A stretch of 64,000 nucleotides of DNA from NCBI GenBank assembly GCA_028709785.1, contig JAQUTK010000010.1:29467-93466 (forward strand). The letters are read 5' to 3'. Position 1 is the first letter of the stretch. Each line of letters begins with the position of its first letter. Source of the DNA: Bacteroidales bacterium (lineage in GTDB: Bacteria > Bacteroidota > Bacteroidia > Bacteroidales > JAQUTK01). The position numbers were made by a program, and so were the translations under genes. The notes beneath the pieces were generated by a model. The model did not search any database, was not told where the DNA came from, and saw nothing but the letters and a program-made list of their open reading frames with translations. Of this stretch, positions 5,547 through 24,607 are shown one piece after another.

Positions 5547-5585
5547 AATGGCGGTAAAGAGGGTCTTATTCTCTTTACCGCCATT
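5547..5585. terminator. 15-bp perfect hairpin between convergent genes
   Basis: AATGGCGGTAAAGAG (5547-5561) pairs with CTCTTTACCGCCATT (5571-5585) across a 9-nt loop. It sits between the SBP stop and the CDGSH gene stop. Confidence 0.5.
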
Positions 5586-5614
5586 TGTATGTCCGGATAC
5601 GAACAGACTGTCAG

Positions 5615-5851: not shown

Positions 5852-6023
5852 AATTGATGATTTTAAAATGTGATCTCAATAACTTTATCTCTACGTTTGC
5901 AGGGATCCAACCAGCAGACCTGATTGGATTCGAAAGTTAGAAAAGAAATTCCAAATAAGCACATTTGTTTCGACTTATTTCAAAAGATACAGATTTTCCC
6001 GTCTCTCTGGATGGAACTACTCT

Positions 6024-8129: not shown

Positions 8130-8133
8130 TCGT

Positions 8134-11100
8134 TTAACGTAGTTTTTTGGGAGAAACACCTTCAAAAGTCATCACAACCGGTTTGATGGTTCCATTAGCA
8201 TCAAACTCCATCTTATCAATACAGGTCACTCTGGAGTTACCGTTTGTCTCGCTCAAAGGTCTGCGGTGATAGACGATATACCACTCATCCGTGCCCGGAA
8301 CTTGTATCACCGAATGGTGACCTGCTCCGGTAGCAATGGTAGCATCCTGTTGAAGAATCAGTCCGATGCGTTTAAACGGGCCGAAAGGAGAGTCCCCGAT
8401 GGCATACGCCACCCGGTAATCCGGTCCGGTCCAACCCCCTTCAGACCACATGAAGTAATACTTGTTATTTCGGCGAAACATGACCGGGCCTTCCACATAA
8501 CCTTCGGGTGTAATCTCTTTAAAAGTCGTGCCATCGGCAAACGGAGTAAACGCCTTGAAATCATTCTGCAATTTAGCGATGTTGCAATGCCGCCATCCGC
8601 CATAGATCATATAATACTGACCATCCACATCCTGAAAGACAAACTGATCAATCGGCTGAGCACCGTTATAAAACTTATCCAACAAAGGTTTACCCAGATA
8701 ATCTTTAAACGGACCTTCCGGCTTGTCCGAAACAGCCACGCCAATACCCCCCACAGAGTTATCATCCTGAATGTCGTTGGCACTGAAAAACAGATAAAAC
8801 TTTTTCTCTTTTTCGATGATAGCAGGTGCCCACATCGCTTTATTCGCCCATTTTACCTGTGCGGTATCAATGATAGAACTATGTTTTGTCCAGGTGACCA
8901 GATCCTTCGAGGAGAAAGCATCCATAAAAACCTGTTTCTCGTACGGAGCCGAATAGGTCGGATAGATCCAGTACTGATTGTTGAAAATCACACCTTCCGG
9001 ATCGGCATACCAACCTTCAAACACCGGATTGCCTGCTTTCTGAGCCAGGAGGTGACTCTCTTTTGCCGGCACATTCAGACCAAACGAGTAAGTTCCCGCT
9101 TTCAGTTCGTATACCGCTTTCCCGTTTTCCCGCTTCACAAAGGTGACCCCTTTCGCTTTGTTGGCAAGTGTCAGACCTTCATAGACCACATCCGATGCTT
9201 TGGACAACGGCAGATAGAGGGTTGCCGTTGTATTAGCCGGTACTGTCGCGGTGTAGGCAAGATTGCCGTCTTTGCGGATTTCCCATGCACTCTTGATATC
9301 GCCGTAGTAGGATTTGAACGTTGCATCCACCGATGTGATCCGTTCCTGACCTTCCGGCAAGGTGGTCCTATTATCCAGATTAGGTTGGAGGATAAAATGT
9401 TTGAAACCAGGAGCCGATTCATCAGCTTCGATGCCTGCCATATAGCGATACATCCATTCTTCCACTGCACCATACGAATAATGATTGAATGAATTCATGC
9501 CCACATCATGAAAACCTTGATCCTTCGTGTAGGAATCCCAACGCTCCCAAATGGTGGTTGCTCCCTGATCGATGCTGTATATCCACGAAGGATTGCTTCT
9601 TTGCAACAACAGATTATAGGCTGTATTTGTCGCACCATATTGACTCAATGTCTGATTCAGGATTCCCGTTCCAACAAACCCGGTACTCAACTTGTTACCA
9701 TTGTCAGCGATTTTCTGAGTCAGATAACTTAATCCTTTCTTCGAAGCAGCTTCTGTAGGGAATAAATCAAGCTTTAATGCCAGCAAATAAGCTGTCTGAG
9801 ACACCTCTTTCAAGGAACCATCCGCATTCACATAGCGTTTTCCAAACTCCGCTTTGATCTTTCCATACAAAGCGGCATATTCATTGCTCTTCACGTCATA
9901 CCGGTCACCCTTTGTCTGACTTAGCACTTTAGACATCTTCGACATCAACTGAGCCGCATAGGCGTAATAACATACGCTGACATAGCGGTTTTCCAGTTTC
10001 TCGTACGAAACCCAGTCGCCATAACTCGTGCCTGCTCCGTTATACAAATATCCATCACCCTTTTGTGCTGCCAGAAAGTCCATGTATTTTTCCATTTCCG
10101 GATAATTCTCTGTAATGATCTCGATGTCATTATACATCAGATAGACATTCCATGGAACAATGATACCGGCTTCCGCCCAGGCACCCTGACCATGACCACC
10201 CCATATCACAGGCGCAGTACTTGGGAAAGCACCATCCTCGCGCTGGCAATCGCGCATGTCACCCATCCATTTGTGGAAGAACGAAGCAACATCGGCATTA
10301 TAAGCCGCAGTCCGGGAGAAGATCTGTGTATCGCCTGTCCATCCCTGACGTTCATCCCGTTGCGGACAATCGGTAGGCACGCTCAGGAAATTACTCCGTT
10401 GTCCCCAGATCACATTGCTATACAACTGGTTAACGATGGCGCTGCTTGTCTTGAATGTGGAACCCTCTTCCGTCGCATTTCCAACCACTTCCGCTGTCAT
10501 GGACTGAATCTCCACATCCTCACTCGCCAACACTTCGCAATATCTGAAACCAAAGAACGTGAGACTCGGATGATAACTCTCCGACCTTTCGCTCCCTTTG
10601 AAAATGTAGTTTATCGTTGCCTTTGCCGAACGGAGATTGGCTGTGTACAAACTTCCCGCCGGACCGTCATTGCCTCTGGCTAAAGCGCCATTGTCATTGA
10701 CCATTTCACCAAAACGAATTTGCATCTTTGTTCCAACAGCCGATTTTGCCGTGAAACGAACCCATCCGGCCATGTTCTGTCCAAAATCATAAATAGCCGT
10801 CTGACCTTTTTTGAGTTGAACCACACCCGGGCCATTGATCACCTTGATGGTGTTGATCGCGCCAAATGTTTGTCCGTTATCCTTCTTTCCCTCATAAACC
10901 GTAATGGTAGCAGGCTTTCTGTTGAGCTCTGTGCGAACTTGAACAGTAGGTCCGACAAAGGCTTTCATTGTTCCTTTGAAATCATCTGACACAGCCGTCT
11001 GAAGCCATTTAGAGTCATCATATCCGGCCGTTTTCCAGTCACTTTCCTTTCTGGCGTCATACGTTTCGCCACTGTAGATATCAGCCATACAGATCGGTCC

Positions 11101-12522
11101 GTCCGAATTACAGACCCAGGTAGGATCCGTCACCACCGTTTGCGTTGTTCCGTCGGTATATTGAATTACCAGTTTGGCGATAAAAGCAAGATCCTTATCC
11201 CCGTACATTCCACGGGCAATATTTCCTCTCCACCAGCCTGAAGCCACATGCGCCCCGATGGCATTTGCACCCGAGAGCAGGAGGGAAGTTACATCATACG
11301 TTGAGTATAGTACCGTCTTGCTGTAGTCCGTCCAACCCGGTTTCAGTTCGTCGTAAACCACTTTCCCGCTTTCTGTGGAAGTACCCACCCGGGTTCCATT
11401 GATAAACAGATCATAGACACCCAGCGCAGAGGTATAGATCTTCGCCGATTTTATCTTCCGATCCAGCTTAAATGTTGTTCTGAACATCGGAATTCCGGCA
11501 GCGCTCCCCTGAAACACACGAGAGTCATCGCCCGAGCTTACGAGCAATCGCCCATCAACCACCGGTCCCTGCGTAAACTGAAAATTGTCCGGATTGGAGA
11601 AGTTCTCCGCAAAAATCACTTTCTCAACCCCCTGAACCTTTGTGGTCACTTTGATATTATCAAACGAAGCAGACTCTTTATTCGAACTGGTTTCGCCATG
11701 CGAGGAACGGAAGCCCACACCTCCCAGACCATAATTGCCACCCCTTGGGTTTACCCGATTGGCATCTACCAGGATATTGTTGATATAGGTTGAAGCTTTA
11801 TCCCCTTTGACTTCGATCCGAAGCGTATACGTTACCCCCTTTTTGATCTCGATCAAACGAGTGATATCGATGTTTTCATGGCAAACCACATTGCCATCCT
11901 TCCAGGAATGAGGACGCAGACGGCTTTTCCCGTCCTTCTCGATATTGATCTGCCACATGTAAAAGTTATTTACGTCTTTGATCCCAAAGCAAGGACCTGC
12001 GGCAATCTCATTCAGGATAAAATCCATCTCAATCGTGTAATCCGTAGTGGCGCTCTTTGTTGCAGATGCCTTTTCCCCTTGCTTGAGCGTCGTTGCCTTG
12101 ATCCATTTGGCATTACCCCAACCCGTATCCATTAAGCCCGTTTCAAAGTAAGCAGTCTCTGAGGAAGAGATCTTTTTATTGTTCGCATCCCAAATATCCA
12201 CACGCCAGAAATAGCGGGTAGAAGGCATCAGAGCCACACCTGCGTAACTGTTGTTGATTGACTGGTCGGAGTTTACACGGCCTGAATTCCACACCGTTTT
12301 ATTTCCCGATCTGTCCGTCGAAACAATTATCTGATACGCTGTTTGTTTGGCGCCACGTTCGGAGGTGGAAAAGATCCAGCTGAATCGCGGTTTTTTCACA
12401 TCAATCCCGACGGGATTTTGGAGATATTCAGTGCGAAGATGCTTCACTTCAGGAGCATTTTTAGCCGGCAAACTGAATGAAAACAACAGGAAGAGTCCCA
12501 ATAAATAGAGTAGCTTTCTCAT
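8134..12522 (-). CDS. multidomain alpha-L-rhamnosidase (GH78) with an inserted lectin-like domain and a C-terminal GH43-like domain
   Basis: GH78 N-terminal signature LRTEYLQNPVGIDVKKPRFSW. Catalytic-region motif VPTDCPQRDERQGWTGD. The C-terminal ~330 aa (NPVFEGWYADPEGVIF...WAPAIIEKEKKFYLFFSA...EGPVMFRRNNKYYFMWSEG) match the GH43 five-bladed propeller pattern. Confidence 0.85.
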   Translation of the reverse strand: MRKLLYLLGLFLLFSFSLPAKNAPEVKHLRTEYLQNPVGIDVKKPRFSWIFSTSERGAKQTAYQIIVSTDRSGNKTVWNSGRVNSDQSINNSYAGVALMPSTRYFWRVDIWDANNKKISSSETAYFETGLMDTGWGNAKWIKATTLKQGEKASATKSATTDYTIEMDFILNEIAAGPCFGIKDVNNFYMWQINIEKDGKSRLRPHSWKDGNVVCHENIDITRLIEIKKGVTYTLRIEVKGDKASTYINNILVDANRVNPRGGNYGLGGVGFRSSHGETSSNKESASFDNIKVTTKVQGVEKVIFAENFSNPDNFQFTQGPVVDGRLLVSSGDDSRVFQGSAAGIPMFRTTFKLDRKIKSAKIYTSALGVYDLFINGTRVGTSTESGKVVYDELKPGWTDYSKTVLYSTYDVTSLLLSGANAIGAHVASGWWRGNIARGMYGDKDLAFIAKLVIQYTDGTTQTVVTDPTWVCNSDGPICMADIYSGETYDARKESDWKTAGYDDSKWLQTAVSDDFKGTMKAFVGPTVQVRTELNRKPATITVYEGKKDNGQTFGAINTIKVINGPGVVQLKKGQTAIYDFGQNMAGWVRFTAKSAVGTKMQIRFGEMVNDNGALARGNDGPAGSLYTANLRSAKATINYIFKGSERSESYHPSLTFFGFRYCEVLASEDVEIQSMTAEVVGNATEEGSTFKTSSAIVNQLYSNVIWGQRSNFLSVPTDCPQRDERQGWTGDTQIFSRTAAYNADVASFFHKWMGDMRDCQREDGAFPSTAPVIWGGHGQGAWAEAGIIVPWNVYLMYNDIEIITENYPEMEKYMDFLAAQKGDGYLYNGAGTSYGDWVSYEKLENRYVSVCYYAYAAQLMSKMSKVLSQTKGDRYDVKSNEYAALYGKIKAEFGKRYVNADGSLKEVSQTAYLLALKLDLFPTEAASKKGLSYLTQKIADNGNKLSTGFVGTGILNQTLSQYGATNTAYNLLLQRSNPSWIYSIDQGATTIWERWDSYTKDQGFHDVGMNSFNHYSYGAVEEWMYRYMAGIEADESAPGFKHFILQPNLDNRTTLPEGQERITSVDATFKSYYGDIKSAWEIRKDGNLAYTATVPANTTATLYLPLSKASDVVYEGLTLANKAKGVTFVKRENGKAVYELKAGTYSFGLNVPAKESHLLAQKAGNPVFEGWYADPEGVIFNNQYWIYPTYSAPYEKQVFMDAFSSKDLVTWTKHSSIIDTAQVKWANKAMWAPAIIEKEKKFYLFFSANDIQDDNSVGGIGVAVSDKPEGPFKDYLGKPLLDKFYNGAQPIDQFVFQDVDGQYYMIYGGWRHCNIAKLQNDFKAFTPFADGTTFKEITPEGYVEGPVMFRRNNKYYFMWSEGGWTGPDYRVAYAIGDSPFGPFKRIGLILQQDATIATGAGHHSVIQVPGTDEWYIVYHRRPLSETNGNSRVTCIDKMEFDANGTIKPVVMTFEGVSPKKLR

Positions 12523-12663
12523 AATTTTAGATTTAACGAAGCAGGTATTATTTGTTTTTATGTATAGATTTCAAAGGTACAAAAATACAAGAAGATACAG
12601 AAGCAGAACATTCAAAAATGATCAATAATGTTTCAAAATTGATTTCTCTCTTTCTATTGAGAA

Positions 12664-12762
12664 TTCTTCTTCTTCATCATCATCTTCTTCTCCTGTGGAG
12701 CATCTCTTTTTGTTCAAATAATTTTGAGGAAATAGAAGAGGAAGAAGATATAGATGAAGAAG
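12664..12762. repeat. imperfect polypyrimidine/polypurine inverted repeat
   Basis: The CTT/CAT-rich arm 12664-12694 faces the GAA/GAT-rich arm 12727-12762 (shared CTTCTTCATC and CTTCTTC blocks in reverse complement), with a ~32-nt spacer. Confidence 0.6.
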
Positions 12763-12806
12763 TAGTTTTATTTTTCTATGGTTTACTCTAGTATACTCTT
12801 CTCTGG

Positions 12807-12831
12807 TCTTCTCTTCTCTTCTCTTCTCTTC
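12807..12831. repeat. (TCTTC)5 pentanucleotide microsatellite
   Basis: Five perfect tandem TCTTC units read directly from the sequence. Confidence 0.9.
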
Positions 12832-13108
12832 TGTGCTTTTTGAAAAGTTCTATGTTGTTGTTATATAGTGAGATGTAATTTTGTTTTAACATAGTTTGTC
12901 ACACAAATTGAGGGTTCATCTATGTTAAATCACTCGTCAATCTTGTTTTTTGAATCAAAAAAGTAGCTTATTGTGCACTGCTTTTTACTGTCCACTTTTA
13001 CGAGAGCAGCTCATTTCTCAACCTCTTTTCTAGTCTGCGGATTAGAAAAACCAGATGTTTTTCCCCACGCTATTGAGTGATCAAACACGAATTCCCTGTT
13101 CTGCTCTT

Positions 13109-13174
13109 CGTTTGCCAATCGGTAACTTTCCGTTTGCCGATGGATGACTCCCCGTTGGCCTATTGGCAAACGAG
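13109..13174. repeat. 22-bp tandem repeat (three units) with an inverted copy of its core
   Basis: CGTTTGCCAAT at 13109, CGTTTGCCGAT at 13131 and CGTTGGCCTAT at 13153 are spaced exactly 22 bp apart. ATTGGCAAACG at 13162-13172 is the exact reverse complement of the first core. Confidence 0.8.
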
Positions 13175-13451
13175 ACGAACATCAGCTCGCATGAGATGCA
13201 CTGTCGTTTGTGTTTGAAAGTCTATAACTGTGGATTTAAGCGTTTATAACCGCTAAAGATATGTTTAATAACAATCCGCTGGAAACGTAAATATTTAAAA
13301 GTAATCCGGGTTAATCCGGAAAAATATAGATACATTTGTTTCATTACAATTAACGCTTTACTCTTTCGTTCATATTCAATTATATAGGGCGAGTCATTAT
13401 AGCTCATGCTAAAGAGGATAAAGGAATTCGATCATTTAAATTAAGATTACT

Positions 13452-15083
13452 TTGAATAATCAAGACAAAACCAAAGAAGAACTCATAAAGGAACTACAGA
13501 CATTAAAGCAAGCGCATGATGCCTTGAAAGTTTCTTTTGAAGAAAATATAAGCGAACGAAGGTTGATGGAAGCAGCTTTGAGCGAAAGTGAAAGCAAATA
13601 TCGCCTGCTGGCACAGAATAGCTCAGATGTGATCTGGACGTTGGACAACTACTATCGCTTTACCTATATCAGCCCATCCATCTACCAATTGCGAGGACTG
13701 ACATCCGAAGAGGCAATGCGCGAATCGATTCAGGATACTATGCCTCCTCATTCACTGGAAGTGGTTAATAAAATCATTGTTGAGAGCAAGGAACTGGAAC
13801 AGAAGAAGATGTATCCTCCCGTGCATATTGAAATTGAACAATATCACAAAGATGGACATTTGATCTGGGTTGACATTACTCTTCGCGTGATGTTAGATGA
13901 TAAAGGCGAGAAGATTGGCTATGTGGCTGCTTCCCGCAATATTACTGAACGCAAAATGGCTGAGAAAGCATTGCAAGAAAGTGAAGAAAATTTCCGCACT
14001 TTGGTTGATCAGGCAAAGGTTGTGATTTCTATTGTGGGAGATGTTCAGTGTTCAAAATATCTATATGTGAATGAAGAATGGTCGCGCGTTCAAGGATATA
14101 GCAAAGAGGAAGCACAAAACCTGAGACCTCTCGATTTGATAGCACCCGATTTAAGACCACAAATACTGGATTATGCGGCGAAACGCATGAACGGAGGTTC
14201 AGTTCCCAATAATTATGAGTTGAAGATAATCACTAAAAGTGGCGAAATAAAGTATCTTGATTTTTCTCCGACAATCATAACCTTTCAAAACCAAAAAGCT
14301 ATTTTAACAACCTCCATAGACCTTACCGAGCGAAAGAAAGCAGAAGAAACACTGCGAGAAAGTGAAGCCAAATTGAGAGAAAGTAATGCTCAAAAAGATA
14401 AATTCTTCTCGATCATTGCCCATGACCTTATAAACCCGTTCAACTCCATTATGGGATTCAGTGAAGTGCTGCTCAATCGAATCAATGAGAAAGATTATAA
14501 TGGCATTGACGAATATGCAAGGATGATAGGCCAATCCTCAAAACAAGCGATGGACTTATTGAAAAATCTATTGGAATGGTCGCGTGCACAAACAGGCCGA
14601 TTGCAGTTTAAACCTGAAAACTTTGATTTGGTGGATTTGATCGGACAATACATGATGCTTTTCGACTTGATTGCCTGCCAAAAATCCATTACCATCCATA
14701 AAGTGTTACCTCCTGAAATTATGGTTTTTGCTGATCAACAGATGATCGGTACAGTACTCCGGAATTTGATCTCCAATGCCATCAAATTTACCCCAAAAGG
14801 CGGTGATATTATTATTTCAGCAGAGAAAAGAGCTGATGAAATCCTTGTTTCAGTCAGTGATAACGGAGTAGGCATCGCACCGGAAAGACTTGAAAAGCTA
14901 TTTCACATTGATGAAAGCGATACAACCCCAGGCACAAACAACGAAAATGGAACCGGCCTTGGTCTGATCCTCTGCAAAGAATTTGTAAAAAATCATGGTG
15001 GTAAATTATGGGTAGAAAGTGAGAATGGAAAGGGTTCTACATTTTATTTTGCTCTTTCGAGTAGCACCGAGCCATTGAAATAA
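13452..15083 (+). CDS. PAS-domain sensor histidine kinase (coiled-coil, 2 PAS, HisKA, HATPase_c)
   Basis: Phospho-acceptor box FFSIIAHDLINP. ATP-binding N box LRNLISNAIKFT. G boxes DNGVGI and GTGLGL. SRNITERK PAS linkers. The TTG start at 13452 is uncertain. Confidence 0.85.
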   Translation: MNNQDKTKEELIKELQTLKQAHDALKVSFEENISERRLMEAALSESESKYRLLAQNSSDVIWTLDNYYRFTYISPSIYQLRGLTSEEAMRESIQDTMPPHSLEVVNKIIVESKELEQKKMYPPVHIEIEQYHKDGHLIWVDITLRVMLDDKGEKIGYVAASRNITERKMAEKALQESEENFRTLVDQAKVVISIVGDVQCSKYLYVNEEWSRVQGYSKEEAQNLRPLDLIAPDLRPQILDYAAKRMNGGSVPNNYELKIITKSGEIKYLDFSPTIITFQNQKAILTTSIDLTERKKAEETLRESEAKLRESNAQKDKFFSIIAHDLINPFNSIMGFSEVLLNRINEKDYNGIDEYARMIGQSSKQAMDLLKNLLEWSRAQTGRLQFKPENFDLVDLIGQYMMLFDLIACQKSITIHKVLPPEIMVFADQQMIGTVLRNLISNAIKFTPKGGDIIISAEKRADEILVSVSDNGVGIAPERLEKLFHIDESDTTPGTNNENGTGLGLILCKEFVKNHGGKLWVESENGKGSTFYFALSSSTEPLK

Positions 15084-15635
15084 AATGGTATTCAAAAGTT
15101 CTTTTCATACAGATCTCTGGACTCGAAAAAACAACAGAATGGCAAAACCTACAAACAAATGAACTGCTTGTAGCGTATGATCACAATCGGTGTTTTAGAA
15201 CAATTCGCCCTACCTTAAAGAATGATCAGATTCAACAGAAAAGGATGTTGAGAGACTGGACTCTGTCTTCACTGTCGATTCTGGAGATCTTTATGTGATT
15301 GGTAAATAATGAGTTGTGCTTTCAGAAATTGTATTCTGAAGGGCAATAAATTTCAACCTGAAGAAATTTATATTTTATCAGGTTCGGATGACAAAAAGTA
15401 TTAGATGTTTTTACCAAAACTATTAGAAGATTTTCGGCACTTTTCAGGCCGTTATTTGCGATGAAACCGGATCATACAAATCGGTGTTTTAGAACAATTT
15501 GAAGAATGGCAATACCAAGCATAGTAATGGAAAACTATACCTTAGGAGTGCAATACTTCAGAAAGAGCAGTTCGCCCTTGTGCATTGATCCACGCAAAGG
15601 CATCCGTGATGCGTTTGAAAGTCCTTAAACGAAAA

Positions 15636-16188
15636 TGCAACAGTTGTACAACGATTATTAGGCTATACCAAATGGGAGAACTTTGAAAAAGTAATTCTAA
15701 AAGCCAAAGATGCGTGCAGGAATGCAGGGGAAGAAAACGAAAACCATTTTCCTGACGTCAGGAAAACGATACCGATGCCAAAAGGTGCTGAAAAAGAGAT
15801 AGATGATATTCTTTTAACGCGTTATGCCTGTTATCTAATAGCACAAAACGGCGATCAAGCTCTTTTCAATATAAATACTCAACTATTGAAGCGAAAAATG
15901 GGAGTGCCTGATAGCCGACCAGTAGCCGATTTCTTACCGACAATAAGTATCAAAGCCAAAGACCTTGCCGCAGAAATGACTGGGCTGAATGTGCAAAACA
16001 AAGACCTGAAAGGGCAAGCCAAAATAGAAAAGGAACATGTTGACAATAATCTTGCTGTAAGAAATATGCTTACCCAACGGGGTATTGTACCGGAAAACTT
16101 ACCACCTGCGGATGATGTAAAGAAACTGCAACGAAAGCTCGATGGTGATGAAAAGAAAATGCTAAAAGGTACAAAAAAGAAGAACTGA
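15636..16188 (+). pseudogene. DinD-like (DNA-damage-inducible protein D family) remnant
   Basis: LLGYTKWENFEKVILKAKDAC...KGAEKEIDDILLTRYACYLIAQNGD matches the DinD core, but the N-terminal part is out of frame or stopped upstream of 15775 and the middle is shortened. Only ORF 15775..16188 remains open. Confidence 0.5.
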
Positions 16189-16254
16189 TGGAAATTCAAT
16201 AGAACATACCGAAGTTGCGATTTCCTGAGTTTGAAGGGGAGTGGAGATTAATCT
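16188..16254 (+). pseudogene. type I restriction-modification specificity subunit (HsdS) N-terminal remnant
   Basis: ATG GAA ATT CAA TAG is followed in frame by NIPKLRFPEFEGEW, the characteristic HsdS N-terminus. It is interrupted by a stop and abuts the recombinase fragment. Confidence 0.45.
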
Positions 16255-16395
16255 TTACACTGGTTACGACACTCGTATGCTACTCATTTATTGGAAACTG
16301 GCACCGATCTTAGATATATACATGAACTATTAGGACATAGAAGCAGTAAAACAACGGAGATTTACACTCACGTTACGTTACGGAAAAAAGTTTAA
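16255..16395 (+). pseudogene. tyrosine recombinase/integrase C-terminal remnant (46 codons)
   Basis: Translates to [46 protein letters not shown]-stop. This is the box II region with the catalytic His and Tyr. No upstream part of the gene exists. Confidence 0.75.
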
Positions 16396-16580
16396 AAAAA
16401 ATTGCCAACCCATTCGATCTTTTGTAATGAATTTAATATCTTTACAAAATAAATAAATAACTACTGACATTTATCAGCGTTATCCACCAGTATTTAGGTG
16501 CTAAAGGATGGTTCTGTCAGCGGTATATTGATGTTGGTGGCAAGGCAAGAAACCAAACTACCCCGAATTAAATTACTACT

Positions 16581-17177
16581 ATGATATTTGAAAGAGGACA
16601 TTTTAGCAACAGTAATATTCAAGAATCGTTTATCAACGAATCATTAAGAGACGTAAGGACATTTAGTTCTAAGTCTGCGTATTCGGCAAAACCCACTGTT
16701 TTCTTATCGCATAAACATGATGATTTGAAAGATTTACAAGGATTTATGGGTAAACTTCAAGAATTGGGAGCTAAAGTATATATTGACAGTATGGATAATA
16801 AAATGCCTGACCAAACTTCTGGAGATACTGCTATAAGGATAAAGGAGGTTATTAAATACTGTAATAAATTTATTTTGTTAGCAACAGAAAAAGCGATTGA
16901 ATCATACTGGTGTAATTGGGAGTTAGGAATTGGAGATACGCATAAATTTATTGAGCATATTGCAATTTTACCAATGAAGGAAAGAGGTTTAAATGATTTA
17001 CAGTACAAAGGGAATGAGTATCTCCAAATATATCCAAGAATAGATTATGAAGATGGTACGAATCACTATCGAAATAATGGAGGTATTATCCCCCAAGGAT
17101 ATTATGTTAGTAAACCTATAAATAAAGAGGGCATTAGGTACATTACTTTACTTACAGATTGGTTAAATCAAAAATAA
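16581..17177 (+). CDS. TIR-domain protein (additional ThsB-type sensor of the Thoeris locus)
   Basis: TVFLSHKHDD and FILLATEKAIESYWCNWELG resemble the bacterial TIR beta-A strand and catalytic Glu region. It lies 10 nt upstream of thsA. Confidence 0.7.
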   Translation: MIFERGHFSNSNIQESFINESLRDVRTFSSKSAYSAKPTVFLSHKHDDLKDLQGFMGKLQELGAKVYIDSMDNKMPDQTSGDTAIRIKEVIKYCNKFILLATEKAIESYWCNWELGIGDTHKFIEHIAILPMKERGLNDLQYKGNEYLQIYPRIDYEDGTNHYRNNGGIIPQGYYVSKPINKEGIRYITLLTDWLNQK

Positions 17178-17187
17178 TATAATAAAT

Positions 17188-18627
17188 ATGCCATTTGATA
17201 GAGAAATTGAAGCGTTTATTAAGAACTTTGTTCTAGACCTTTCAGAAAACAATGTAGCTATATTTGCAGGAGCAGGAATGTCCAAAGGAGCTGGGTATGT
17301 CGATTGGTCAGAACTTTTAAATGATATAGCTGAGGAAATAGGATTAAATGTAAAAATTGAAAGTGATTTAATTTCTTTAGCTCAATATCATGTAAATGAA
17401 CGAGGTGGAAAAGCTGGAATAATTAAGAAAATACTACAGGAATTTTCAGAACAAGCAGAACCTTCAGATAATCATAAACTTTTAGCACGATTGCCTATCA
17501 CGACTTATTGGACAACTAATTATGATACACTTATTGAAGATTCTTTAAAAGATGCATTTAAGATTGTAGACATTAAACATCAAGTTGAACAATTATCCAA
17601 TACTAGACCGAAAAGAGATGTTGTTTTGTATAAAATGCATGGTGATGTTCACCACCCAGCTGATGCAATTCTTACAAAGGAACAATATGAATTTTATTAT
17701 AGAACCCATGAGCATTTCATTACAGCTTTAAGTGGCGATTTAATTTCAAAGACATTTCTATTCATTGGTTTTAGTTTTACCGACCCTAATCTTGATTATG
17801 TATTAAGCAGACTAAATTATCAGTTTGGAGATATTAACAAGCAGCATTATTGTTTTATTAAAAAAGAGAGTAAAGAGACAGATGATGATGATGAAGTTTT
17901 CAAATACAAACAAAGAAAACAGAAATTAAGAGTTGATGATTTAAAGCGTTATAGAATTAAAGCACTATTAGTTGATAATTATATCGATATTACAGAGATA
18001 CTTAAAGAAATTGAAAAGCGGTATATAAAGAAAACCATTTTTATATCCGGCAGTGCGGAGGAATATGGCCAATGGGATAGAAACCAAGCCCAATCTTTTG
18101 TTCATACTATGAGTAAAAAGATTGTAACCTCAAATTTTAGAGTTGTAAATGGTTTTGGTTGGGGCATCGGTAGCGCTGTAATTAATGGTGCGTTAGAAGC
18201 TGTTTATGAGAGACCAGATAAATATTCAGAAGACCAATTAATAATAAAACCATTTCCTCAATTTGAAACAGGTGGGAAAAAACTATCCGAACTTTGGGAG
18301 GATTATCGTCAAAGAATGATAGCACTTGCAGGTATTGCTGTTTTTATTTTTGGCAATAAAAGTGATGGGAAAGGAGCCGTTATTCCAGCAAATGGAGTTA
18401 TGAGAGAATTCGAGATTGCTGTTCAGCATGGCTTAATTCCAATTCCGATTGCAGGAACTGGCTATATTACTAATGACATTTACAAAGAGATACTGAAAAG
18501 TCCTGAAAAGTATTATACTGGTATAGAATGGATAATTCCAATTATTAAAGAGCTTGCTTCTGATAAACTAACGGTTGACGAAATAATAAAAAAGGTGCTA
18601 TTCATAATTCAAACAATTAATAAATAA
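17188..18627 (+). CDS. thsA: Thoeris ThsA (N-terminal SIR2 NADase, C-terminal SLOG domain)
   Basis: Colinear by eye with Bacillus cereus ThsA: IFAGAGMSKGAGYVDW, LARLPITTYWTTNYDTLIE, VLYKMHGDVHHP, TFLFIGFSFTDPNLDYVLSR, then the SLOG part IFISGSAEEYGQW...VVNGFGWGIGSAVINGALE. Confidence 0.9.
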   Translation: MPFDREIEAFIKNFVLDLSENNVAIFAGAGMSKGAGYVDWSELLNDIAEEIGLNVKIESDLISLAQYHVNERGGKAGIIKKILQEFSEQAEPSDNHKLLARLPITTYWTTNYDTLIEDSLKDAFKIVDIKHQVEQLSNTRPKRDVVLYKMHGDVHHPADAILTKEQYEFYYRTHEHFITALSGDLISKTFLFIGFSFTDPNLDYVLSRLNYQFGDINKQHYCFIKKESKETDDDDEVFKYKQRKQKLRVDDLKRYRIKALLVDNYIDITEILKEIEKRYIKKTIFISGSAEEYGQWDRNQAQSFVHTMSKKIVTSNFRVVNGFGWGIGSAVINGALEAVYERPDKYSEDQLIIKPFPQFETGGKKLSELWEDYRQRMIALAGIAVFIFGNKSDGKGAVIPANGVMREFEIAVQHGLIPIPIAGTGYITNDIYKEILKSPEKYYTGIEWIIPIIKELASDKLTVDEIIKKVLFIIQTINK

Positions 18628-18631
18628 AGCT

Positions 18632-19120
18632 ATGGCAAGAAAATCATTTTTTAGTTTTCATTTTAAAGGCGATAACTGGCGGGCTGGAATTGTCCGTAAT
18701 AGTTGGGTAACTCAAGATAGAGAAGCTGCTGGTTTCTTTGATTCTGTTGAATGGGAAAAAGTTAAAAAAAAGAATGATAGTGATATTGAGGCTTGGATTG
18801 ATAGTCAATTAAAGGGAACTTCTGTCACAGTAGTTTTAATTGGAGAGAATACCGCAGGTAGAAAATGGATAAATTATGAGATTACAAGCAGCTATAAAAA
18901 AGGAAATGGTCTCTTAGGTATTTATATTCATAATTTAAAAGATAAAGACCAAAAGACAAGTAATAAAGGACGAAGCCCTTTTAGTGATTGGTATGTAGAA
19001 AAGGATGGTAAAAAAGTCTATTTTTCTGACATGTATGATACTTATGATTGGGTTAATGATGATGGTTATAAAAATATGGGTGATTGGATTGAAAAAGCCG
19101 CAAAGAAAGCAGGAAAATAA
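18632..19120 (+). CDS. thsB: Thoeris ThsB (DUF1863/TIR-like)
   Basis: FFSFHFKGDNWRAGIVRNSWVT...AAGFFDSVEWEKVKKK...SVTVVLIGENTAGRKWINYEITSS is colinear with B. cereus ThsB, including the YEI Glu. Confidence 0.9.
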   Translation: MARKSFFSFHFKGDNWRAGIVRNSWVTQDREAAGFFDSVEWEKVKKKNDSDIEAWIDSQLKGTSVTVVLIGENTAGRKWINYEITSSYKKGNGLLGIYIHNLKDKDQKTSNKGRSPFSDWYVEKDGKKVYFSDMYDTYDWVNDDGYKNMGDWIEKAAKKAGK

Positions 19121-19128
19121 ACCCTAGC

Positions 19129-19259
19129 CGTCAACAACGGCTATACCCAATGCGGATTTCAGCGGTTTTGCAAGTTAAGTTCCCGCAGGCAAGGTTTGCA
19201 TCGTGGGATACAGACGCAGCCACGCAATCCCGCACTGGGCATAGCCGCGAACGTATAAG
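19129..19259 (+). repeat. attC-like recombination site 1 (131 bp)
   Basis: Starts with CGTCAAC and ends with GTATAAG. Inner arms GGCTATACCCAATGCGGATT (19139-19158) and AATCCCGCACTGGGCATAGCC (19226-19246) pair with one extra base. It is GC-rich in an AT-rich context. Confidence 0.6.
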
Positions 19260-19280
19260 GCAGTTTTAAAATCACACTAT

Positions 19281-19985
19281 ATGACAGAGAATATAAAGAA
19301 AATTAATAATCCTTTGACAATAATTGCAATATTTGCAGCTCTTGCAGAAATAAATGCAACTGTTTCTTTAGGTTTAATACCAGAAAATCTTCAAGCCATC
19401 TTTATTTGGTTTATTCTAGCATTTCCCACCTTACTTGTCATTTGCTTTTTCTTAACACTTAACTTTAACCCACGAGTAATGTATGCTCCAAGTGATTATA
19501 AAGACGAAAAGAACTTCTTGGATACGATTTCAGGGCGATTTAAAGAAATGCAATTCAATGTAACAAAGGACAATATAATTGAAATTGAGCAGAAATTACA
19601 GGCTGAAAGCATTGACATTTTGGATCGTTATGAGTCAAGCGACATTTCAATTAAGATGTTGAATTATGGAAATAGTTTCTTTTCTGAATTGATTTCCTTG
19701 TTTAAAAATAAACTTGAAGAACATGTATTTGACTCTTTTGGATTTGGAATTCAATCCGAAGATTTGTTTTTATTGTCGATAGTTTTAAATAAACATAGAT
19801 TCCCAAAAAATTTTGCGACTGATCACAATTACATATTGCGATTCACTGAAAAACAAGGTAAAGTTATTGGAGAAATTGCAGGGAAAAATATCAAGAGCGA
19901 CAGTTATAAAACTCTTTCAAAGCAAACCTTTGAATTAATTGAAAAAATGATAAGTCAGAGCATAGTCAAGAAAACCGCCTTATAA
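19281..19985 (+). CDS. hypothetical membrane protein (two N-terminal TM helices plus ~160-aa soluble domain), cassette A cargo
   Basis: Hydrophobic segments LTIIAIFAALAEINATVSLGLI and AIFIWFILAFPTLLVICFFLTL. I recognise no family motif. The stop codon lies inside the next attC-like site. Confidence 0.6.
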   Translation: MTENIKKINNPLTIIAIFAALAEINATVSLGLIPENLQAIFIWFILAFPTLLVICFFLTLNFNPRVMYAPSDYKDEKNFLDTISGRFKEMQFNVTKDNIIEIEQKLQAESIDILDRYESSDISIKMLNYGNSFFSELISLFKNKLEEHVFDSFGFGIQSEDLFLLSIVLNKHRFPKNFATDHNYILRFTEKQGKVIGEIAGKNIKSDSYKTLSKQTFELIEKMISQSIVKKTAL

Positions 19986-20109
19986 CATTAGCTACCCGCA
20001 AGGTCGGCGGCAGTTGGTATTCGGTGGGCATCTTTCCGCTCAAACTGTTTTTCGGCTTGACAGAAAATCTCCCGCAATCCGCCCCTGCGTGTAGCTTCCT
20101 GCGTTACAT
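19980..20109 (+). repeat. attC-like recombination site 2 (130 bp)
   Basis: Starts with TTATAAC (contains the TAA stop of the upstream ORF) and ends with GTTACAT. Arms TAGCTACCCGCAAGGTCGGCGG and CCGCCCCTGCGTGTAGCT pair imperfectly. Confidence 0.6.
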
Positions 20110-20176
20110 GGCATTTAAAGGACAATACCCATAAACTCAACTAATAGTGTTATTATTAATATTAAAATTTTCAGTG

Positions 20177-20752
20177 ATGAGTATTCATCCAACAATTATA
20201 GCTGCTATTATAACAACATCAGGAGCCATTATAACTGCTATAATTACTAAAAAAGAGTGGATTCTATTTTTTGAAAAACCGAAAATTAAATTAGATGGAA
20301 AATGGAAAGGCATATCAATTTATGTTCCTTTAGAAAACGATAACGATTTAGAATGTGTTTATAAAATAAACGCTGATATTGAACAAAAAGGGCGAAGGAT
20401 TAAATTAACTGAGAATATATATGAAATACTTGACTTTAACAACAATGTTCTACGTAAAGAACCGAGGACATTTGTAGGTAAAGGAAAAATAATGAGAGAA
20501 CAAGATATAACTATTGATTTTAATGAAAAGAGAGGCTTGACTTGTGGTGTTATGTATTTGGTATCTGATTATTGGGGTAATGAATTAAAAGGTCTAATGG
20601 CCGTTACTAATCCTTACTGTGGAAAACCTGTCGTTGTTAAGATTCTTTTGAGAAGGGTAGATAAAGAAGATATTAAAGTTGATGATTTAGGATTTAATTA
20701 TCTTAGGCCCATATATACACATTACTTTGACATTAATTCAAATAAAGAATGA
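20177..20752 (+). CDS. hypothetical single-pass membrane-anchored protein, cassette B gene 1
   Basis: N-terminal TM IHPTIIAAIITTSGAIITAIIT is followed by a ~160-aa domain with no motif I recognise. ATG 20177 is preferred over GTG 20147. The stop overlaps the next gene start (ATGA). Confidence 0.55.
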   Translation: MSIHPTIIAAIITTSGAIITAIITKKEWILFFEKPKIKLDGKWKGISIYVPLENDNDLECVYKINADIEQKGRRIKLTENIYEILDFNNNVLRKEPRTFVGKGKIMREQDITIDFNEKRGLTCGVMYLVSDYWGNELKGLMAVTNPYCGKPVVVKILLRRVDKEDIKVDDLGFNYLRPIYTHYFDINSNKE

Positions 20753-21324
20753 GTAATATATTGAAAATAAGAATTTCTGATAAAATACTTCTAAAGCAAA
20801 TTGAGTATATAGATGCCGAGATTATTTTTAAAACAATAAATAGTCAGAGAGAAAGCCTTCGAAAATGGTTGACATTTATAGATACAACAAAAAAAATTGC
20901 AGATACTCAAAAATATATTAAAAGTGTAATTGATGTTCCTGACGAAAATCGTGAGTATATTTTTGTAATATTTTATGATAGTGTTTTTGCTGGTTTAATC
21001 GGTTTTGAAGGAACAAATAAGTACAACAAAAAAACAGAAATTGGTTATTGGCTTTCTGAAGATTATAGAAAAAAAGGGATTGTTACTGAATCTGTCAAGG
21101 GATTAATGAGATTTGCATATAAAGACTTAGAGATTAATAGAATTCAAATTAAATGTGCTGTTGGAAATATTCAGAGTAGTAATATTCCTAAACAACTAGG
21201 TTATAAATTCGAAGGAATTGAACGAGCAGGAGAATTACTTTCAGATGGAACTTTTACTAATGTTGAAGTTTATAGTTTACTAAAGTATGAATTTGATGAT
21301 TTAACAAACAAAAATGCCATGTAA
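20749..21324 (+). CDS. GNAT family N-acetyltransferase (RimJ/RimL-like), cassette B gene 2
   Basis: The EIGYWLSEDYRKKGIVTESVKGLMRFAY acetyl-CoA binding region (R/Q-x-x-G-x-G/A-like RKKG) and overall length match the Acetyltransf_3 type. Confidence 0.8.
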   Translation: MSNILKIRISDKILLKQIEYIDAEIIFKTINSQRESLRKWLTFIDTTKKIADTQKYIKSVIDVPDENREYIFVIFYDSVFAGLIGFEGTNKYNKKTEIGYWLSEDYRKKGIVTESVKGLMRFAYKDLEINRIQIKCAVGNIQSSNIPKQLGYKFEGIERAGELLSDGTFTNVEVYSLLKYEFDDLTNKNAM

Positions 21325-21447
21325 CACGCGGTATATAAAATTGCCGGTTCAGTAGGTTATTTATGAGTTGTAGCTCGCTTCAACTTTTGTGTAACAAGAT
21401 AGGAAATCGCCTGCAATCGGCAACTTTTCATACCGCCGCTGTTGTAC
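21319..21447 (+). repeat. attC-like recombination site 3 (129 bp)
   Basis: Starts with ATGTAAC (contains the GNAT TAA stop) and ends with GTTGTAC. Arms GCGGTATATAAAATTGCCGGTT and AATCGGCAACTTTTCATACCGC pair imperfectly. Confidence 0.6.
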
Positions 21448-21482
21448 GCCATAATAAAAAGCCGAAAACGACCACTTTGATT

Positions 21483-21740
21483 ATGAAGATTAGATTTGCA
21501 AATGGATTGATTGATAAGCTAGAATATAGCAATCATGACGATTATGAGACATATCCGAATTCGGTTTTCATCTGTGATAAATGTGGCGATAAAATTGGAT
21601 TTGCGTATAAGGATTTAGAAAAACATAGATTCTCAAAGAATTCAAATCTAAATGGTAATGATAAAATTATTGCTGATAAATTGATTCTTTCGATGATCCC
21701 AAAGTACAAGATTGAAAAAAAATACAGATTTCGGCATTGA
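21483..21740 (+). CDS. small hypothetical protein with a CxxC knuckle, cassette C (possibly the 5' half of a split gene)
   Basis: ATG 21483 lies just after attC-like site 3. Contains FICDKCGDK. Ends 18 nt after an A8 run (21715-21722). Confidence 0.45.
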   Translation: MKIRFANGLIDKLEYSNHDDYETYPNSVFICDKCGDKIGFAYKDLEKHRFSKNSNLNGNDKIIADKLILSMIPKYKIEKKYRFRH

Positions 21741-21964
21741 CTAATCGAGACAGATTAATCGTAAGGATTCAAAGACTTTATCTAAGAATGATTGGTGTAA
21801 AAGGATTTTTTTTACCAATACCAAAGATTAATGAAAATATTCCAGATTCATATATTGATTATTACTGCCCCAAATGCCAAACACCTATAAGGATTTATTA
21901 TAGTAGTTTTATGGGTGGTAGTCATTGTGAAATAGGTTTTGAAATTAAGTATGTAATGAATTGA
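21737..21964 (+). CDS. small hypothetical protein with a CxxC knuckle, cassette C (possibly the 3' half of a split gene)
   Basis: Only a TTG start is available (TTGA overlap). Contains YYCPKCQTP. This frame would be joined to the upstream ORF by a single extra A in the A8 run. Confidence 0.35.
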   Translation: MTNRDRLIVRIQRLYLRMIGVKGFFLPIPKINENIPDSYIDYYCPKCQTPIRIYYSSFMGGSHCEIGFEIKYVMN

Positions 21965-21967
21965 AAT

Positions 21968-22201
21968 CACTAGTGTCCACTAAATGCTAAAATATTATCC
22001 TATAACCAATTGGATTTATGCAATTTACAAGCGAATTTTTGTGTCCACGATTTGAATTCCCAGATTTACTCCATAAGAAAGAATTGAACCAATCTATATT
22101 GGTAAGTTGGGCTATACCCTATCAAGAGCCTACTCTCGCAAGTGTCTGAGATTGAAGATGAATTTTAATTATGTCTTAATTTCTTTTAGTGGACACTAGT
22201 G
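21968..22201. mobile_element. 234-bp MITE with 17-bp perfect terminal inverted repeats and a 9-bp target-site duplication
   Basis: CACTAGTGTCCACTAAA (21968-21984) and TTTAGTGGACACTAGTG (22185-22201) are exact reverse complements. They are flanked by direct AATTGAAAT at 21959-21967 and 22202-22210. There is no ORF inside, and an internal third GTGTCCAC copy lies near 22041. Confidence 0.8.
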
Positions 22202-22226
22202 AATTGAAATAATAAAAAATTACGGC

Positions 22227-22356
22227 GCACAACACAGTATATACTCCATAGGGGTTTCAGAGGTATGCCAAGTGCATCGCTCGCTGGAAAGGTTTTTACC
22301 AGCGGATAGTGAAGCGTCCACGAAATCCCCTACGTAGCATATACTCAACGTCTATT
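22227..22356 (+). repeat. attC-like recombination site 4 (130 bp)
   Basis: Starts with GCACAAC and ends with GTCTATT. Arms AGTATATACTCCATAGGGGTTT and AAATCCCCTACGTAGCATATACT pair imperfectly with one extra base. Confidence 0.55.
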
Positions 22357-22388
22357 AATGGCAAAGAGAAAAAAAATCACATAATCGC

Positions 22389-22697
22389 ATTTATTACGAT
22401 AATATTTCAAATCTATCTATGGTTGTAAATATCAGCTTAAGCAGGAAAAACTCGCTGTTTTGTGGCAGCCATGCTGGAGCAAAGAGATCGGCATTGATCT
22501 ATTCACTGGCGTGTTCCTGCAGGCTGCACGGAATAAACACCTTCGAATACTTCACAGACGTACTCAATCGGATGACCTCTATCAGCTCGAACGCTTCAGA
22601 CGATAGATATCGGGAGCTTCTTCCAAATTACTGGAAATAGCAAGCGTAAGAAAACGGGCTTTTGAATATTCCTATACGGTATCGTGGAGACGCTTAC
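22389..22697 (+). mobile_element. truncated IS66-family element: 3' end of the transposase gene plus right terminal repeat
   Basis: ISLSRKNSLFCGSHAGAKRSALIYSLACSCRLHGINTFEYFTDVLNRM matches the conserved IS66 TnpC C-terminus. The sequence ends ...GAGACGCTTAC at 22697 (complement of the GTAAGCG IS66 terminus). The rest of the IS is missing. Confidence 0.7.
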
Positions 22698-23951: not shown

Positions 23952-23959
23952 TATATTTG
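23952..23959 (+). promoter_or_regulatory. candidate -7 promoter box (TAnnTTTG) of the AbiE operon
   Basis: TATATTTG lies 25 nt upstream of ATG 23984. Confidence 0.4.
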
Positions 23960-23983
23960 CCGACGAATGAACGTAGATTGGAT

Positions 23984-24607
23984 ATGATGACATTATCTGA
24001 AATAGGGAATATACCTGTTGATTTTGCAGTCTTGAAATCGATATTTCCGGATCATAAATCTGTACACAATAAAATCAGTGAGTTGGAAAAGTCTGGAACA
24101 CTTATCAGGCTTAAGAAAGGCATGTACGTACTATCTCCCAAAGAAAGTGGAAAATTAATATCTGTGGAGCTTGTTGCCAATCACCTATACGGACCGTCTT
24201 ACGTTTCGAAGGAGTCGGCTTTACGTTATTACGGACTAATTCCGGAAAGTGTTTATTCTGTTCAATCAATGACTACAAAGCATTCAAGGGTTTTTGTTAA
24301 TTCACTTGGAAAATTTGAATATACACAATGTGAAAAGTCTTATTTTTCAGTTGGTATCAGACAGGAAATAATGGACAATACCTCGTTTCTTATTGCCTGT
24401 CCGGAGAAAGCCTTGTGCGATTTAATCATCCATACACCAAACCTGAATTTGCGTTTTCAGAAAGATATGCTTGCTTATCTGAAAGATGATCTTCGCTTCG
24501 ATATGGATGCTTTCTATCGGATGGATAGTTCTCTTTTTGAGCAATGTGCACAGATGGGAAAGAAAAGGACTGTTATTGAGAATATGATCAAAATCAAACA
24601 ACGATGA
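23984..24607 (+). CDS. type IV toxin-antitoxin system AbiEi-family antitoxin/transcriptional regulator
   Basis: N-terminal winged-helix-like region (KISELEKSGTLIRLKKGMYVL) followed by GPSYVSKESALRYYGLIPE. 4-bp overlap with the AbiEii gene. Confidence 0.75.
   Translation: MMTLSEIGNIPVDFAVLKSIFPDHKSVHNKISELEKSGTLIRLKKGMYVLSPKESGKLISVELVANHLYGPSYVSKESALRYYGLIPESVYSVQSMTTKHSRVFVNSLGKFEYTQCEKSYFSVGIRQEIMDNTSFLIACPEKALCDLIIHTPNLNLRFQKDMLAYLKDDLRFDMDAFYRMDSSLFEQCAQMGKKRTVIENMIKIKQR

Follow-up and report, generated by a model that had tools for sequence, protein, structure and literature searches.

A three-gene type I Thoeris system as a likely gene cassette in an integron-like array of a Bacteroidales genome

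The 64,000-nt stretch considered here (the window) belongs to a Bacteroidales metagenome-assembled genome (MAG; GenBank assembly GCA_028709785.1, contig JAQUTK010000010.1, positions 29,467 to 93,466 of the forward strand). It carries a set of anti-phage genes of the Thoeris type, which stand between the remnant of a tyrosine recombinase gene and a series of hairpin sites resembling the attC recombination sites of integrons. A preliminary description of this DNA had proposed that the Thoeris locus may itself be a 2.7-kb mobile cassette, placed first in an array. The features on which that proposal turns are given below by window position; each attC-type site is scored in bits with a covariance model (CM) of its family, described further on.

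16252-16427, + strand: tyrosine recombinase remnant, C-terminal ~56 codons, frameshifted near 16371-16380 by 5 inserted nt (ACGTT)
16449-16545, + strand: first recombination site (attI-equivalent, hairpin type), decayed in the window, ending in box GTTGGTGGCAAG at 16533-16544
16534-19253, + strand: putative Thoeris cassette, 2720 nt by the convention of a crossover between G and TT (G/TT), with the first-site box on the left and the attC1 box on the right
16581-17177, + strand: thsB-type TIR sensor gene, 198 aa (PADLOC ThsB PDLC00423, 2.4e-65; Pfam TIR_2; PDB 8BTN, 5.5e-14)
17188-18627, + strand: thsA, SIR2 NADase with SLOG/STALD signal-binding domain, 479 aa (Pfam, PADLOC, and PDB matches; NCBI MDD4822029.1, "SIR2 family protein")
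18632-19120, + strand: thsB TIR sensor gene, 162 aa (Pfam ThsB_TIR, 1.3e-25; PADLOC ThsB PDLC00431, 3e-69; PDB 6LHY/9B7D, 8e-32)
19124-19264, + strand: attC1, 141 nt, inner box CTAGCCGTCAAC, outer box GTATAAGGCAGT (104.8 bits, E 9e-24)
19281-19985, + strand: cassette 2 open reading frame (ORF), 234 aa, no family match
19975-20114, + strand: attC2, inner box CCGCCTTATAAC overlapping the stop codon, outer box GTTACATGGCAT (92.5 bits, E 1e-20)
20147-21324, + strand: cassette 3 ORFs, a 201-aa unknown protein and a 191-aa GNAT acetyltransferase
21313-21452, + strand: attC3, inner box ATGCCATGTAAC, outer box GTTGTACGCCAT (101.2 bits, E 7e-23)
21483-21964, + strand: cassette 4 ORFs, 85 and 75 aa, unknown
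22222-22361, + strand: attC4, last site of the array, inner box ACGGCGCACAAC, outer box GTCTATTAATGG, which begins GTC (95.4 bits, E 2e-21)

Thoeris genes of the window

As judged by homology, the three + strand ORFs at 16581-19120 are an intact type I Thoeris system (TIR, ThsA, ThsB); PADLOC profiles, which had been suggested as a check on the subtype, match all three proteins as ThsA or ThsB. In ThsA, Pfam places SIR2_2 at residues 106-237 and STALD at 267-476; the protein matches PADLOC ThsA profile PDLC00407 from end to end (E 3e-204) as well as the solved ThsA structures 8WC0 (E 1e-186), 6LHX (E 5e-148), and 8BTO. Its TTNYD (17503-17517) and MHGD (17626-17637) motifs are identical to those of the aligned 8WC0 ThsA, bearing out the earlier statement that thsA keeps the SIR2 catalytic context and the SLOG domain. 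The YEI glutamate ascribed to thsB is likewise in place: in the alignment with BcThsB (6LHY/9B7D), the NYEI of the 162-aa protein faces RYEI. The 198-aa protein resembles the TIR of 8BTN and retains the WELG motif. This second TIR gene had been called unrelated to the other, which holds at the level of sequence (BLASTP E 0.35 between the two proteins, not significant) but not at the level of role, since both are ThsB sensors by PADLOC. More than one ThsB gene per locus is an established Thoeris layout, and the combination of two sensors with one effector is nothing novel; the order TIR-ThsA-ThsB recurs in many relatives.

By analogy with the homologous systems that have been studied, phage infection would lead either of the dissimilar ThsB TIR proteins to make a cyclic ADP-ribose isomer from NAD+. 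This isomer would bind the SLOG domain of ThsA and switch on the SIR2 NADase, and the resulting drain of NAD+ would leave an infected cell no longer able to support the phage; possession of two ThsB types should broaden the range of phages sensed. The domain set, gene order, and catalytic motifs are the same as in the type I Thoeris of Bacillus cereus MSX-D12 and its multi-ThsB relatives. What sets the predicted system of the window apart from these is its host, a Bacteroidales MAG, and the attC-type sites that bound its genes.

Hairpin sites, boxes, and cassette boundaries

The attC-type sites share one form: directly behind a stop codon comes a box with AAC at its end (the inner box), then a long, imperfectly paired stem, and finally a box that opens with GTT (the outer box). 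A family set of 15 sites from six loci, including the four of the window, was cut with common anchors; all are 140-143 nt long and align well. RNAalifold predicts 17 stem pairs for the set, 16 of them with compensatory changes, and helices 2 and 3 are paired at 89% and 97%. The covariation score is 0.588, compared with 0.145 in shuffles (none of 500 reaches the observed value) and at most 0.116 when the partners are slid. The CM built from this alignment was run over 492 kb. It recovers the four window sites, which are seeds of the model, at 92-105 bits, all on the + strand, and gives no further match in the window. Sites that were not seeds appear in other loci at 110 bits (L029), 91 and 53 (L025), 70 (L014), 55 (L011), 52 (L015), 47 (L006), and 41 and 35 (L021/L020). 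Every hit of at least 35 bits lies on the gene strand; hits on the minus strand are weak, the best being the L016 site reversed, at 25 bits versus 113. The bottom strand is the better-folding one at three window sites, and at the fourth the two strands are equal, with z from -2.0 to -5.3 (attC1, -28.3 kcal/mol, z -3.3; attC4, z -5.3). An attC-like site had been reported 8 nt after the thsB stop codon, and there it is: the stop codon ends at 19120 and the 7-nt core CGTCAAC of the attC1 inner box (19124-19135) starts at 19129. The site list of the preliminary description needs amendment, as it lacked attC3 (21313-21452); the array has four attC sites rather than three, and the presence of attC3 makes cassette 3 a 1.3-kb two-gene unit.

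Two simpler searches of the window were set aside. GC content confounded an energy-only hairpin scan, which was of use within the low-GC island described below and nowhere else, and a finder for AAC...GTT hairpins gave far too many false positives, while pointing to attC3 and to the true inner box of attC2.

The stems have properties of their own. Across the 15 sites the first 17 stem pairs hold no bulged (extrahelical) bases of the kind that mark the recombined strand in integron cassettes. An A.C mismatch, which is G.T on the bottom strand, is invariant in all 15 (alignment columns 29/119; 19150/19235 in attC1), a second position five pairs nearer the stem base, toward the boxes, is frequently A.C or A.T, and the box-adjacent spacers are unequal (2 versus 5-6 nt). 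The invariant A.C position may be the strand-choice signal of this family; going beyond the results, we infer that this position and the unequal spacers could together replace the classical recognition of extrahelical bases by the IntI helix.

Sites of this family that follow unrelated cassettes can be closely alike. The attC after Thoeris in a Chitinophagaceae MAG (L002, 7884-8024) and the attC after a DinB gene in a Cyclobacteriaceae MAG (L014, 13867-14007) are ~85% alike as estimated by eye, not computed, which implies that attC types are common to different bacterial families. In L020, the attC after a ParDE cassette (12005-12290) is split before its outer box by a structured insert of ~270 nt with no Rfam hit; the same post-ParDE attC in L021 is uninterrupted as far as the contig end.

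If the crossover falls at the G/TT of the outer box, a cassette should open with bases that pair with the inner box of its own attC, and successive sites of an array should form a chain. Over 12 nt, the inner box of attC3 and the outer box of attC2 agree at 12 positions, attC4 inner and attC3 outer at 10, and the two ends of the Thoeris unit at 9. The inner box of attC2 and the outer box of attC1 score 5 of 12 as they stand and 11 of 12 with one missing T restored (the attC1 box, GTATAAGG, has lost one T in comparison with CCGCCTTATAAC). In other loci the scores out of 12 are 10, 10, and 11 (L016), 11 (L002), 9 (L025), 11 and 11 (L020), and 11, 11, 10, and 11 with one failure at 4 (L014). As scored, 14 of 16 cognate pairs reach 9-12 of 12, compared with a mode of 6 among 341 non-cognate pairs, 6.5% of which reach 9 and 1.5% of which reach 10.

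The left end of the Thoeris unit draws on a different comparison, that of the DNA after the recombinase stop codon in seven loci (the window and L014, L015, L016, L020, L055, and L056). From a conserved TATCCACC motif on, the alignment is nearly gap-free, with a TATCCACC...GGTG core, a TATA-rich spacer, and then an invariant GTT, which in the window is 16533-16535. The consensus forms a hairpin in which 9 of 13 pairs are compensated across the seven sequences, and the L016 site has perfect 17-nt arms; the window copy shows no significant fold (z -0.7 to -0.8 versus shuffles). The outer box of this first site is complementary to the inner box of the first cassette at 11 of 12 positions in L014, 10 in L016, and 11 in L020. 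Conservation directly 3' of the recombinase stop, the invariant GTT, and box complementarity to the first cassette are what is expected of an attI site; classical attI is not hairpin-shaped, whereas this first site is. The left box had been put forward earlier for matching, at 9 of 12 positions, the reverse complement of 19124-19135. That match exists, and among 17 inner boxes tested the one of attC1 is the best partner of GTTGGTGGCAAG (9, next best 8); the Thoeris value is compatible with the chain rule but weak. Across the window such a match is at chance level, and it is by position that the box is validated. We take it as real because it coincides with the invariant GTT of the conserved post-recombinase site. 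It lies 48 nt upstream of the first Thoeris gene; for the other cassettes a distance of 27-43 nt between GT box and ORF had been given, and cassettes 2 and 3 indeed have 27 and 43 nt.

Thoeris blocks in other genomes bear on the same boundaries. Scans with ThsA yielded 12 genome loci and 27 metagenome loci. A common TIR-ThsA-ThsB block is found at 85-95% nucleotide identity in L002 (Chitinophagaceae), L004 (Flavobacterium), L005 (Cerina), and L006 (Bacteroidales), an identity that across such distant hosts implies horizontal transfer. In L002, L026, and L043 the upstream DNA is unrelated and homology begins exactly at GTTATGCC, ~52 nt ahead of the TIR start codon, an arrangement like that of the window with its 48 nt. 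The inner box of the attC after the related block, GCATAAC, is the complement of this GTTATGCC start. An attC directly follows thsB in L002 (108 bits) and L005 (79 bits), and more weakly in L026 (19 bits); in L025 an attC ends 44 nt upstream of thsA. Missing boxes or different boundaries in homologous loci had been named in advance as evidence to the contrary; what L002, L026, and L043 show is a start exactly at the GTT box and an attC behind the genes. Gain or loss as a unit was not seen for the window copy, and the nearest counterpart is this 5' homology edge of the related block.

At its other end the same cargo is joined to differing hairpins. In L002, L004, L005, and L006 the Thoeris homology breaks off right at the inner box GCATAAC, ahead of the hairpin, and the attC sites that follow are of one type in L002 (7860-8024) and L026 (3575-3727) and of another in L005 (2810-2974). 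One Thoeris cargo on different attC sites joined at the inner box bears on how cassettes form and on how attC sites swap between genes.

It could be asked whether the hairpin after thsB belongs instead to the next unit, with Thoeris as antisense cargo whose own attC lies upstream. A homology edge at the inner box rather than beyond the hairpin, together with the difference between the L005 and L002 hairpins, would suit such an orientation. The CM is strand-specific, though, with the strong hits all in gene direction and the reversed site far below; the chain rule works in that direction from the first site on; L002 and L026 share both the 5' box and the attC type; and no attC lies upstream of the window TIR gene. 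On the strength of CM strand specificity and the chain rule the reversed orientation was rejected, and we regard it as extremely improbable.

A more general doubt is whether the locus is an ordinary defense island, into which Thoeris was brought by other means such as homologous recombination or insertion sequence activity, the hairpins being terminators or repeats and the GT box a coincidence. Its surroundings are indeed those of a defense island (type I restriction remnants upstream, AbiEi/AbiEii at 23957-25428, an IS66 remnant at 22419-22640), and both the chance-level 9-of-12 match and the many ThsA relatives without a nearby attC fit such an account. It does not fit the hairpins, which are one 140-nt family with covariation, fixed polarity, and AAC...GTT ends, are confined to the array within 64 kb, and are linked to their neighbors by box complementarity of 10-12 of 12. 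Nor does it fit a GT box that falls on the invariant GTT of the first site, which is conserved in six further genomes, or related Thoeris blocks that lose homology exactly at such a box. The account is largely refuted already, and we consider it highly unlikely.

The CM, the covariation, the chain rule, and the boundary in L002, L026, and L043 together support the earlier proposal of a mobile 2.7-kb unit at the head of an array. It is likely that 16534-19253 is a three-gene type I Thoeris system in the form of one gene cassette, the first of four in an integron-like array. From the anatomy and the comparisons, insertion of the unit would have been the work of a tyrosine recombinase whose substrates are attC hairpins folded from single-stranded DNA and whose crossover falls at the G/TT of the outer box, in an array that begins at a structured first site directly 3' of a recombinase gene reading in the cassette direction.

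Several observations weigh against this conclusion. The window sites are among the CM seeds, so that their scores are partly circular and the non-seed hits are the real test. The 9-of-12 box match is at chance level across the window (36 hits with at most three mismatches versus 30.3 +/- 5.5 in shuffles), is attained by the stated 6.5% of non-cognate family pairs, and, one failure excepted, is the lowest value among the cognate pairs. A close relative of the window cassette with readable flanks did not turn up: L023, which has the same three genes at 62-78% amino acid identity, is a 2.3-kb contig starting 7 nt before the first gene. No strain without the unit was found either, the only other contig with identical genes (L001, from an exact-protein look-up) having the same layout. 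Finally, many ThsA relatives have no attC nearby, the closest (L024, 80%) having none within 13 kb, which indicates that Thoeris of this clade also lives outside arrays.

The recombinase and its relation to known integrons

In the window, a tblastn search with P0127, a full-length relative of 384 aa from L020, matches residues 329-371 only and detects no upstream pieces at the remnant, and the window holds no other recombinase motif. The ACGTT insertion is apparent against L014-L016. The window copy is not alone in its 5' truncation: besides it, truncated copies of the same recombinase were verified in L014 (9986-10225), L015 (10043-10258), L016 (2887-3102), L055 (8001-8288, an internally deleted form), and L056 (573-842). 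These keep the last 43-79 aligned residues, have no N-terminal pieces detectable upstream, and in the five other loci adjoin housekeeping genes and then same-strand runs of cassette-like or defense genes. Among those five, CM-scored attC sites occur in L014, L015, and L016 and are absent from L055 and L056. The 3' end of the gene and the site that follows are consistently kept, inviting the question of whether the gene end contains promoter or binding sites.

Full-length relatives were reached with an index-free search, which returned many of 350-390 aa. (The 120 best relatives of the remnant in a word-indexed search, a method that may favor short proteins, were all 55-98 aa and were not used as evidence that truncated copies far exceed complete genes in number.) P0127 heads an array on a single strand, with a first site, the ParDE cassette, its attC, and further cassettes. 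The five contigs L050-L054, which carry full-length genes, all stop within the first site, 38-90 nt past the stop codon, which fits assemblies breaking at a repeated or variable junction. Among the relatives listed, five with matches that reach the C-terminus are 76-79% identical there. The HsdS and DinD sequences upstream of the window remnant had also raised the possibility of a type I restriction "shufflon" recombinase; this was ruled out, because both the remnant and the site after it recur, conserved, where cassette arrays begin in six other loci.

One alternative is a canonical integron remnant: the array would then belong to a classical integron whose true IntI has decayed to the stretch at 16252-16427. 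The window itself is neutral on this point. The part that is missing is exactly where the IntI-specific domain would be, and the remnant scores about equally on XerD, XerC, and integron-integrase models. The architecture of the sites (inner AAC, outer GTT, a better-folding bottom strand, ORF then attC) is of the integron type, and integrons with the integrase on the cassette strand are known (PMC13323075). The full-length relatives speak differently. IntI is defined by an additional domain (PMC9668308, PMC2426708), and TIGR02249, whose cut-off is 265 bits, gives 139-211 bits to eight relatives of 305-384 aa, in a two-piece match that skips model positions 181-240. On VchIntIA (2A3V), residues 117-286 of P0127 lie opposite 11-180 and residues 309-381 opposite 245-317, leaving 22 residues where VchIntIA has 64 (181-244), whereas XerA (4A8E) aligns to P0127 without a break. 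The same first site and attC family recur in an array that has one of these relatives at its head. Judged on these sequences, the recombinase family is not IntI by the additional-domain definition; a canonical integron at this locus is thus unlikely, and the platform is integron-like rather than a demonstrated canonical integron.

The full-length relatives also resemble Xer-type enzymes. Seven relatives of 350-384 aa score 211-225 bits on the NCBIfam XerA model, three of them reaching its cut-off of 220, and the best solved-structure matches of full-length relatives are XerA 4A8E and 5HXY, contiguous over the catalytic region (150 and 123 bits). The family differs from Xer-type recombinases in an extra ~100 N-terminal residues, and in heading cassette arrays beside a hairpin site where Xer-type recombinases act at dif.

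Comparison with described integron classes gives a similarly mixed picture. With clusters of attC sites lacking integron-integrases (CALIN; 2016, PMC4889954), the window shares four attC sites and the lack of an adjacent functional integrase, there being only the truncated, frameshifted remnant; it differs in that the 3' remnant and the first site remain, and its sites were found with the family CM and not with the IntegronFinder attC model. "Inverted integrase" integrons (Treponema, Chlorobi, and others) also have a recombinase that reads toward the cassettes and a first site just 3' of it, but theirs carry the additional IntI domain (PMC9668308, PMC2426708), and the first site here is itself a hairpin with AAC...GTT ends. 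Anti-phage systems have been described as cassettes in the sedentary chromosomal integrons of Vibrio (bioRxiv 10.1101/2024.07.02.601686), and bacteriophage resistance integron cassettes (BRiCs) of mobile integrons include two-gene cassettes with ThsB homologues whose partners are not ThsA homologues (bioRxiv 10.1101/2024.07.02.601719). A defense system delimited by an attC and a G/TT start and stockpiled in an array is common to all of these; the present locus differs in that a complete, unshortened Thoeris of three genes, a genuine thsA among them, fills a single 2.7-kb cassette, that the host is of the Bacteroidota, and that the recombinase family has no IntI domain. In a literature search that was not exhaustive, we met no complete Thoeris described as a cassette, no Thoeris cassette from Bacteroidota, and no attC array with a recombinase lacking the IntI domain at its head.

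These comparisons lead us to a broader suggestion, which we advance tentatively and stop short of calling probable: that Bacteroidota and Chlorobi carry a separate integron-like lineage with multi-gene defense arrays. Its recombinase would be a Xer/XerA-like protein of 370-385 aa without the IntI domain, reading toward the cassettes and followed directly after its stop codon by a hairpin first site; its attC sites would be uniform at ~140 nt and free of bulges, with the invariant A.C (G.T on the bottom strand) in place of extrahelical bases. Integron searches that require the IntI domain would score such platforms at best as orphan attC clusters. Integrons in Bacteroidota have been reported in the broad sense, complete ones being very rare there; the suggested lineage, if real, could explain this apparent rarity, and current integron surveys would then undercount a whole phylum. 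Recombination of bulge-free attC sites by an enzyme without the IntI domain, if real, would likewise offer a natural experiment on hairpin recombination and strand choice in the absence of the IntI-specific helix.

Defense systems as integron cassettes are themselves a recent finding, so far centered on Vibrio and clinical mobile integrons, and the present locus extends the idea to Bacteroidota. It suggests that a full-size three-gene Thoeris of 2.7 kb can be one cassette, and Chitinophagaceae, Flavobacteriaceae, and uncultured lineages have related Thoeris blocks that are bounded in this way.

State of the array and its surroundings

The window array is a fossil. Its recombinase is truncated and frameshifted, its first site has no hairpin, and the GTT triplet is gone from both attC1, whose outer box reads GTATAAG with GTA as the crossover triplet, and attC4, where it is GTC. 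The Thoeris unit has probably lost its mobility, unless some functional recombinase encoded elsewhere can cope with these changes. The Thoeris genes are intact despite the decay of the array, and we are most likely looking at a once-mobile cassette that is now fixed and retained for its defense function.

The array lies in a low-GC island at ~15-26 kb of the window (30-38% GC versus ~45% around it), a composition that fits foreign origin. In order, the island contains the DinD and HsdS fragments, the recombinase remnant, Thoeris, three small gene groups, the IS66 remnant, an NMT1-type binding protein, and AbiEi/AbiEii. The members not yet described are as follows.

Within 15775-16250: DinD C-terminal fragment, 137 aa (NCBIfam PRK11525; PADLOC PDC-S13)
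Within 15775-16250: HsdS-like N-terminal fragment (PKLRFPEFEGEW), abutting the recombinase remnant
22419-22640: IS66 remnant, a 73-aa ORF with the IS66 C-terminal element only, directly after attC4 and marking the end of the array
23957-25428: intact AbiEi/AbiEii pair, 1.6 kb past the array (PADLOC, 2e-71 and 2e-115)

The DinD and HsdS fragments are the remains of a type I restriction locus that took the place of the 5' part of the recombinase gene. With an intact AbiEi/AbiEii pair beside the array, the island carries at least two complete defense systems. Beyond ~26 kb the genes are again of host type (a DJ-1/PfpI protein, a methyltransferase, GntP, a histidine kinase, and lactate-utilization genes). 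A sigma-70 promoter scan, which gave 41 sites where 31 were expected, is uninformative, as Bacteroidota use other promoter signals. Rfam scans of the window, L006, L055, and L020 returned no family at gathering score.

Other arrays too begin with defense-like cargo. At the start of the L056 array (1142-8842) are a helix-turn-helix gene, an SNF2 helicase (PADLOC C3a139, DrmD-like), an Eco57I-type methylase, and an AAA_15/SMC ATPase; the L015 array (10414-12102) starts with a 562-aa PLD-family protein followed by its 52-bit attC.

Group II introns may have visited two of the related loci, both among those in which Rfam gave no support for them at gathering score. A reverse transcriptase of the group II intron type (RVT_1, GIIM) lies on the minus strand of L055 at 9007-9711, ~700 nt past the stop codon of the recombinase fragment and ~600 nt past the first site. 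Downstream of the Thoeris locus in L006 is an unannotated 522-aa ORF (12650-14218, + strand), for which a group II intron is only a guess prompted by an upstream GTGCG motif.

Two repeats in the window complete the picture. A 32-nt direct repeat (84% identical, CGNATCANACAATCGGTGTTTTAGAACAATT) occurs at 15174-15205 and 15468-15499, in a 690-nt non-coding stretch after a histidine kinase gene. In cassette 4, before attC4, 29-nt inverted repeats (86% complementary, 21956-21984 and 22185-22213) enclose 200 nt, and the pair looks like a small insertion of the miniature inverted-repeat transposable element type.

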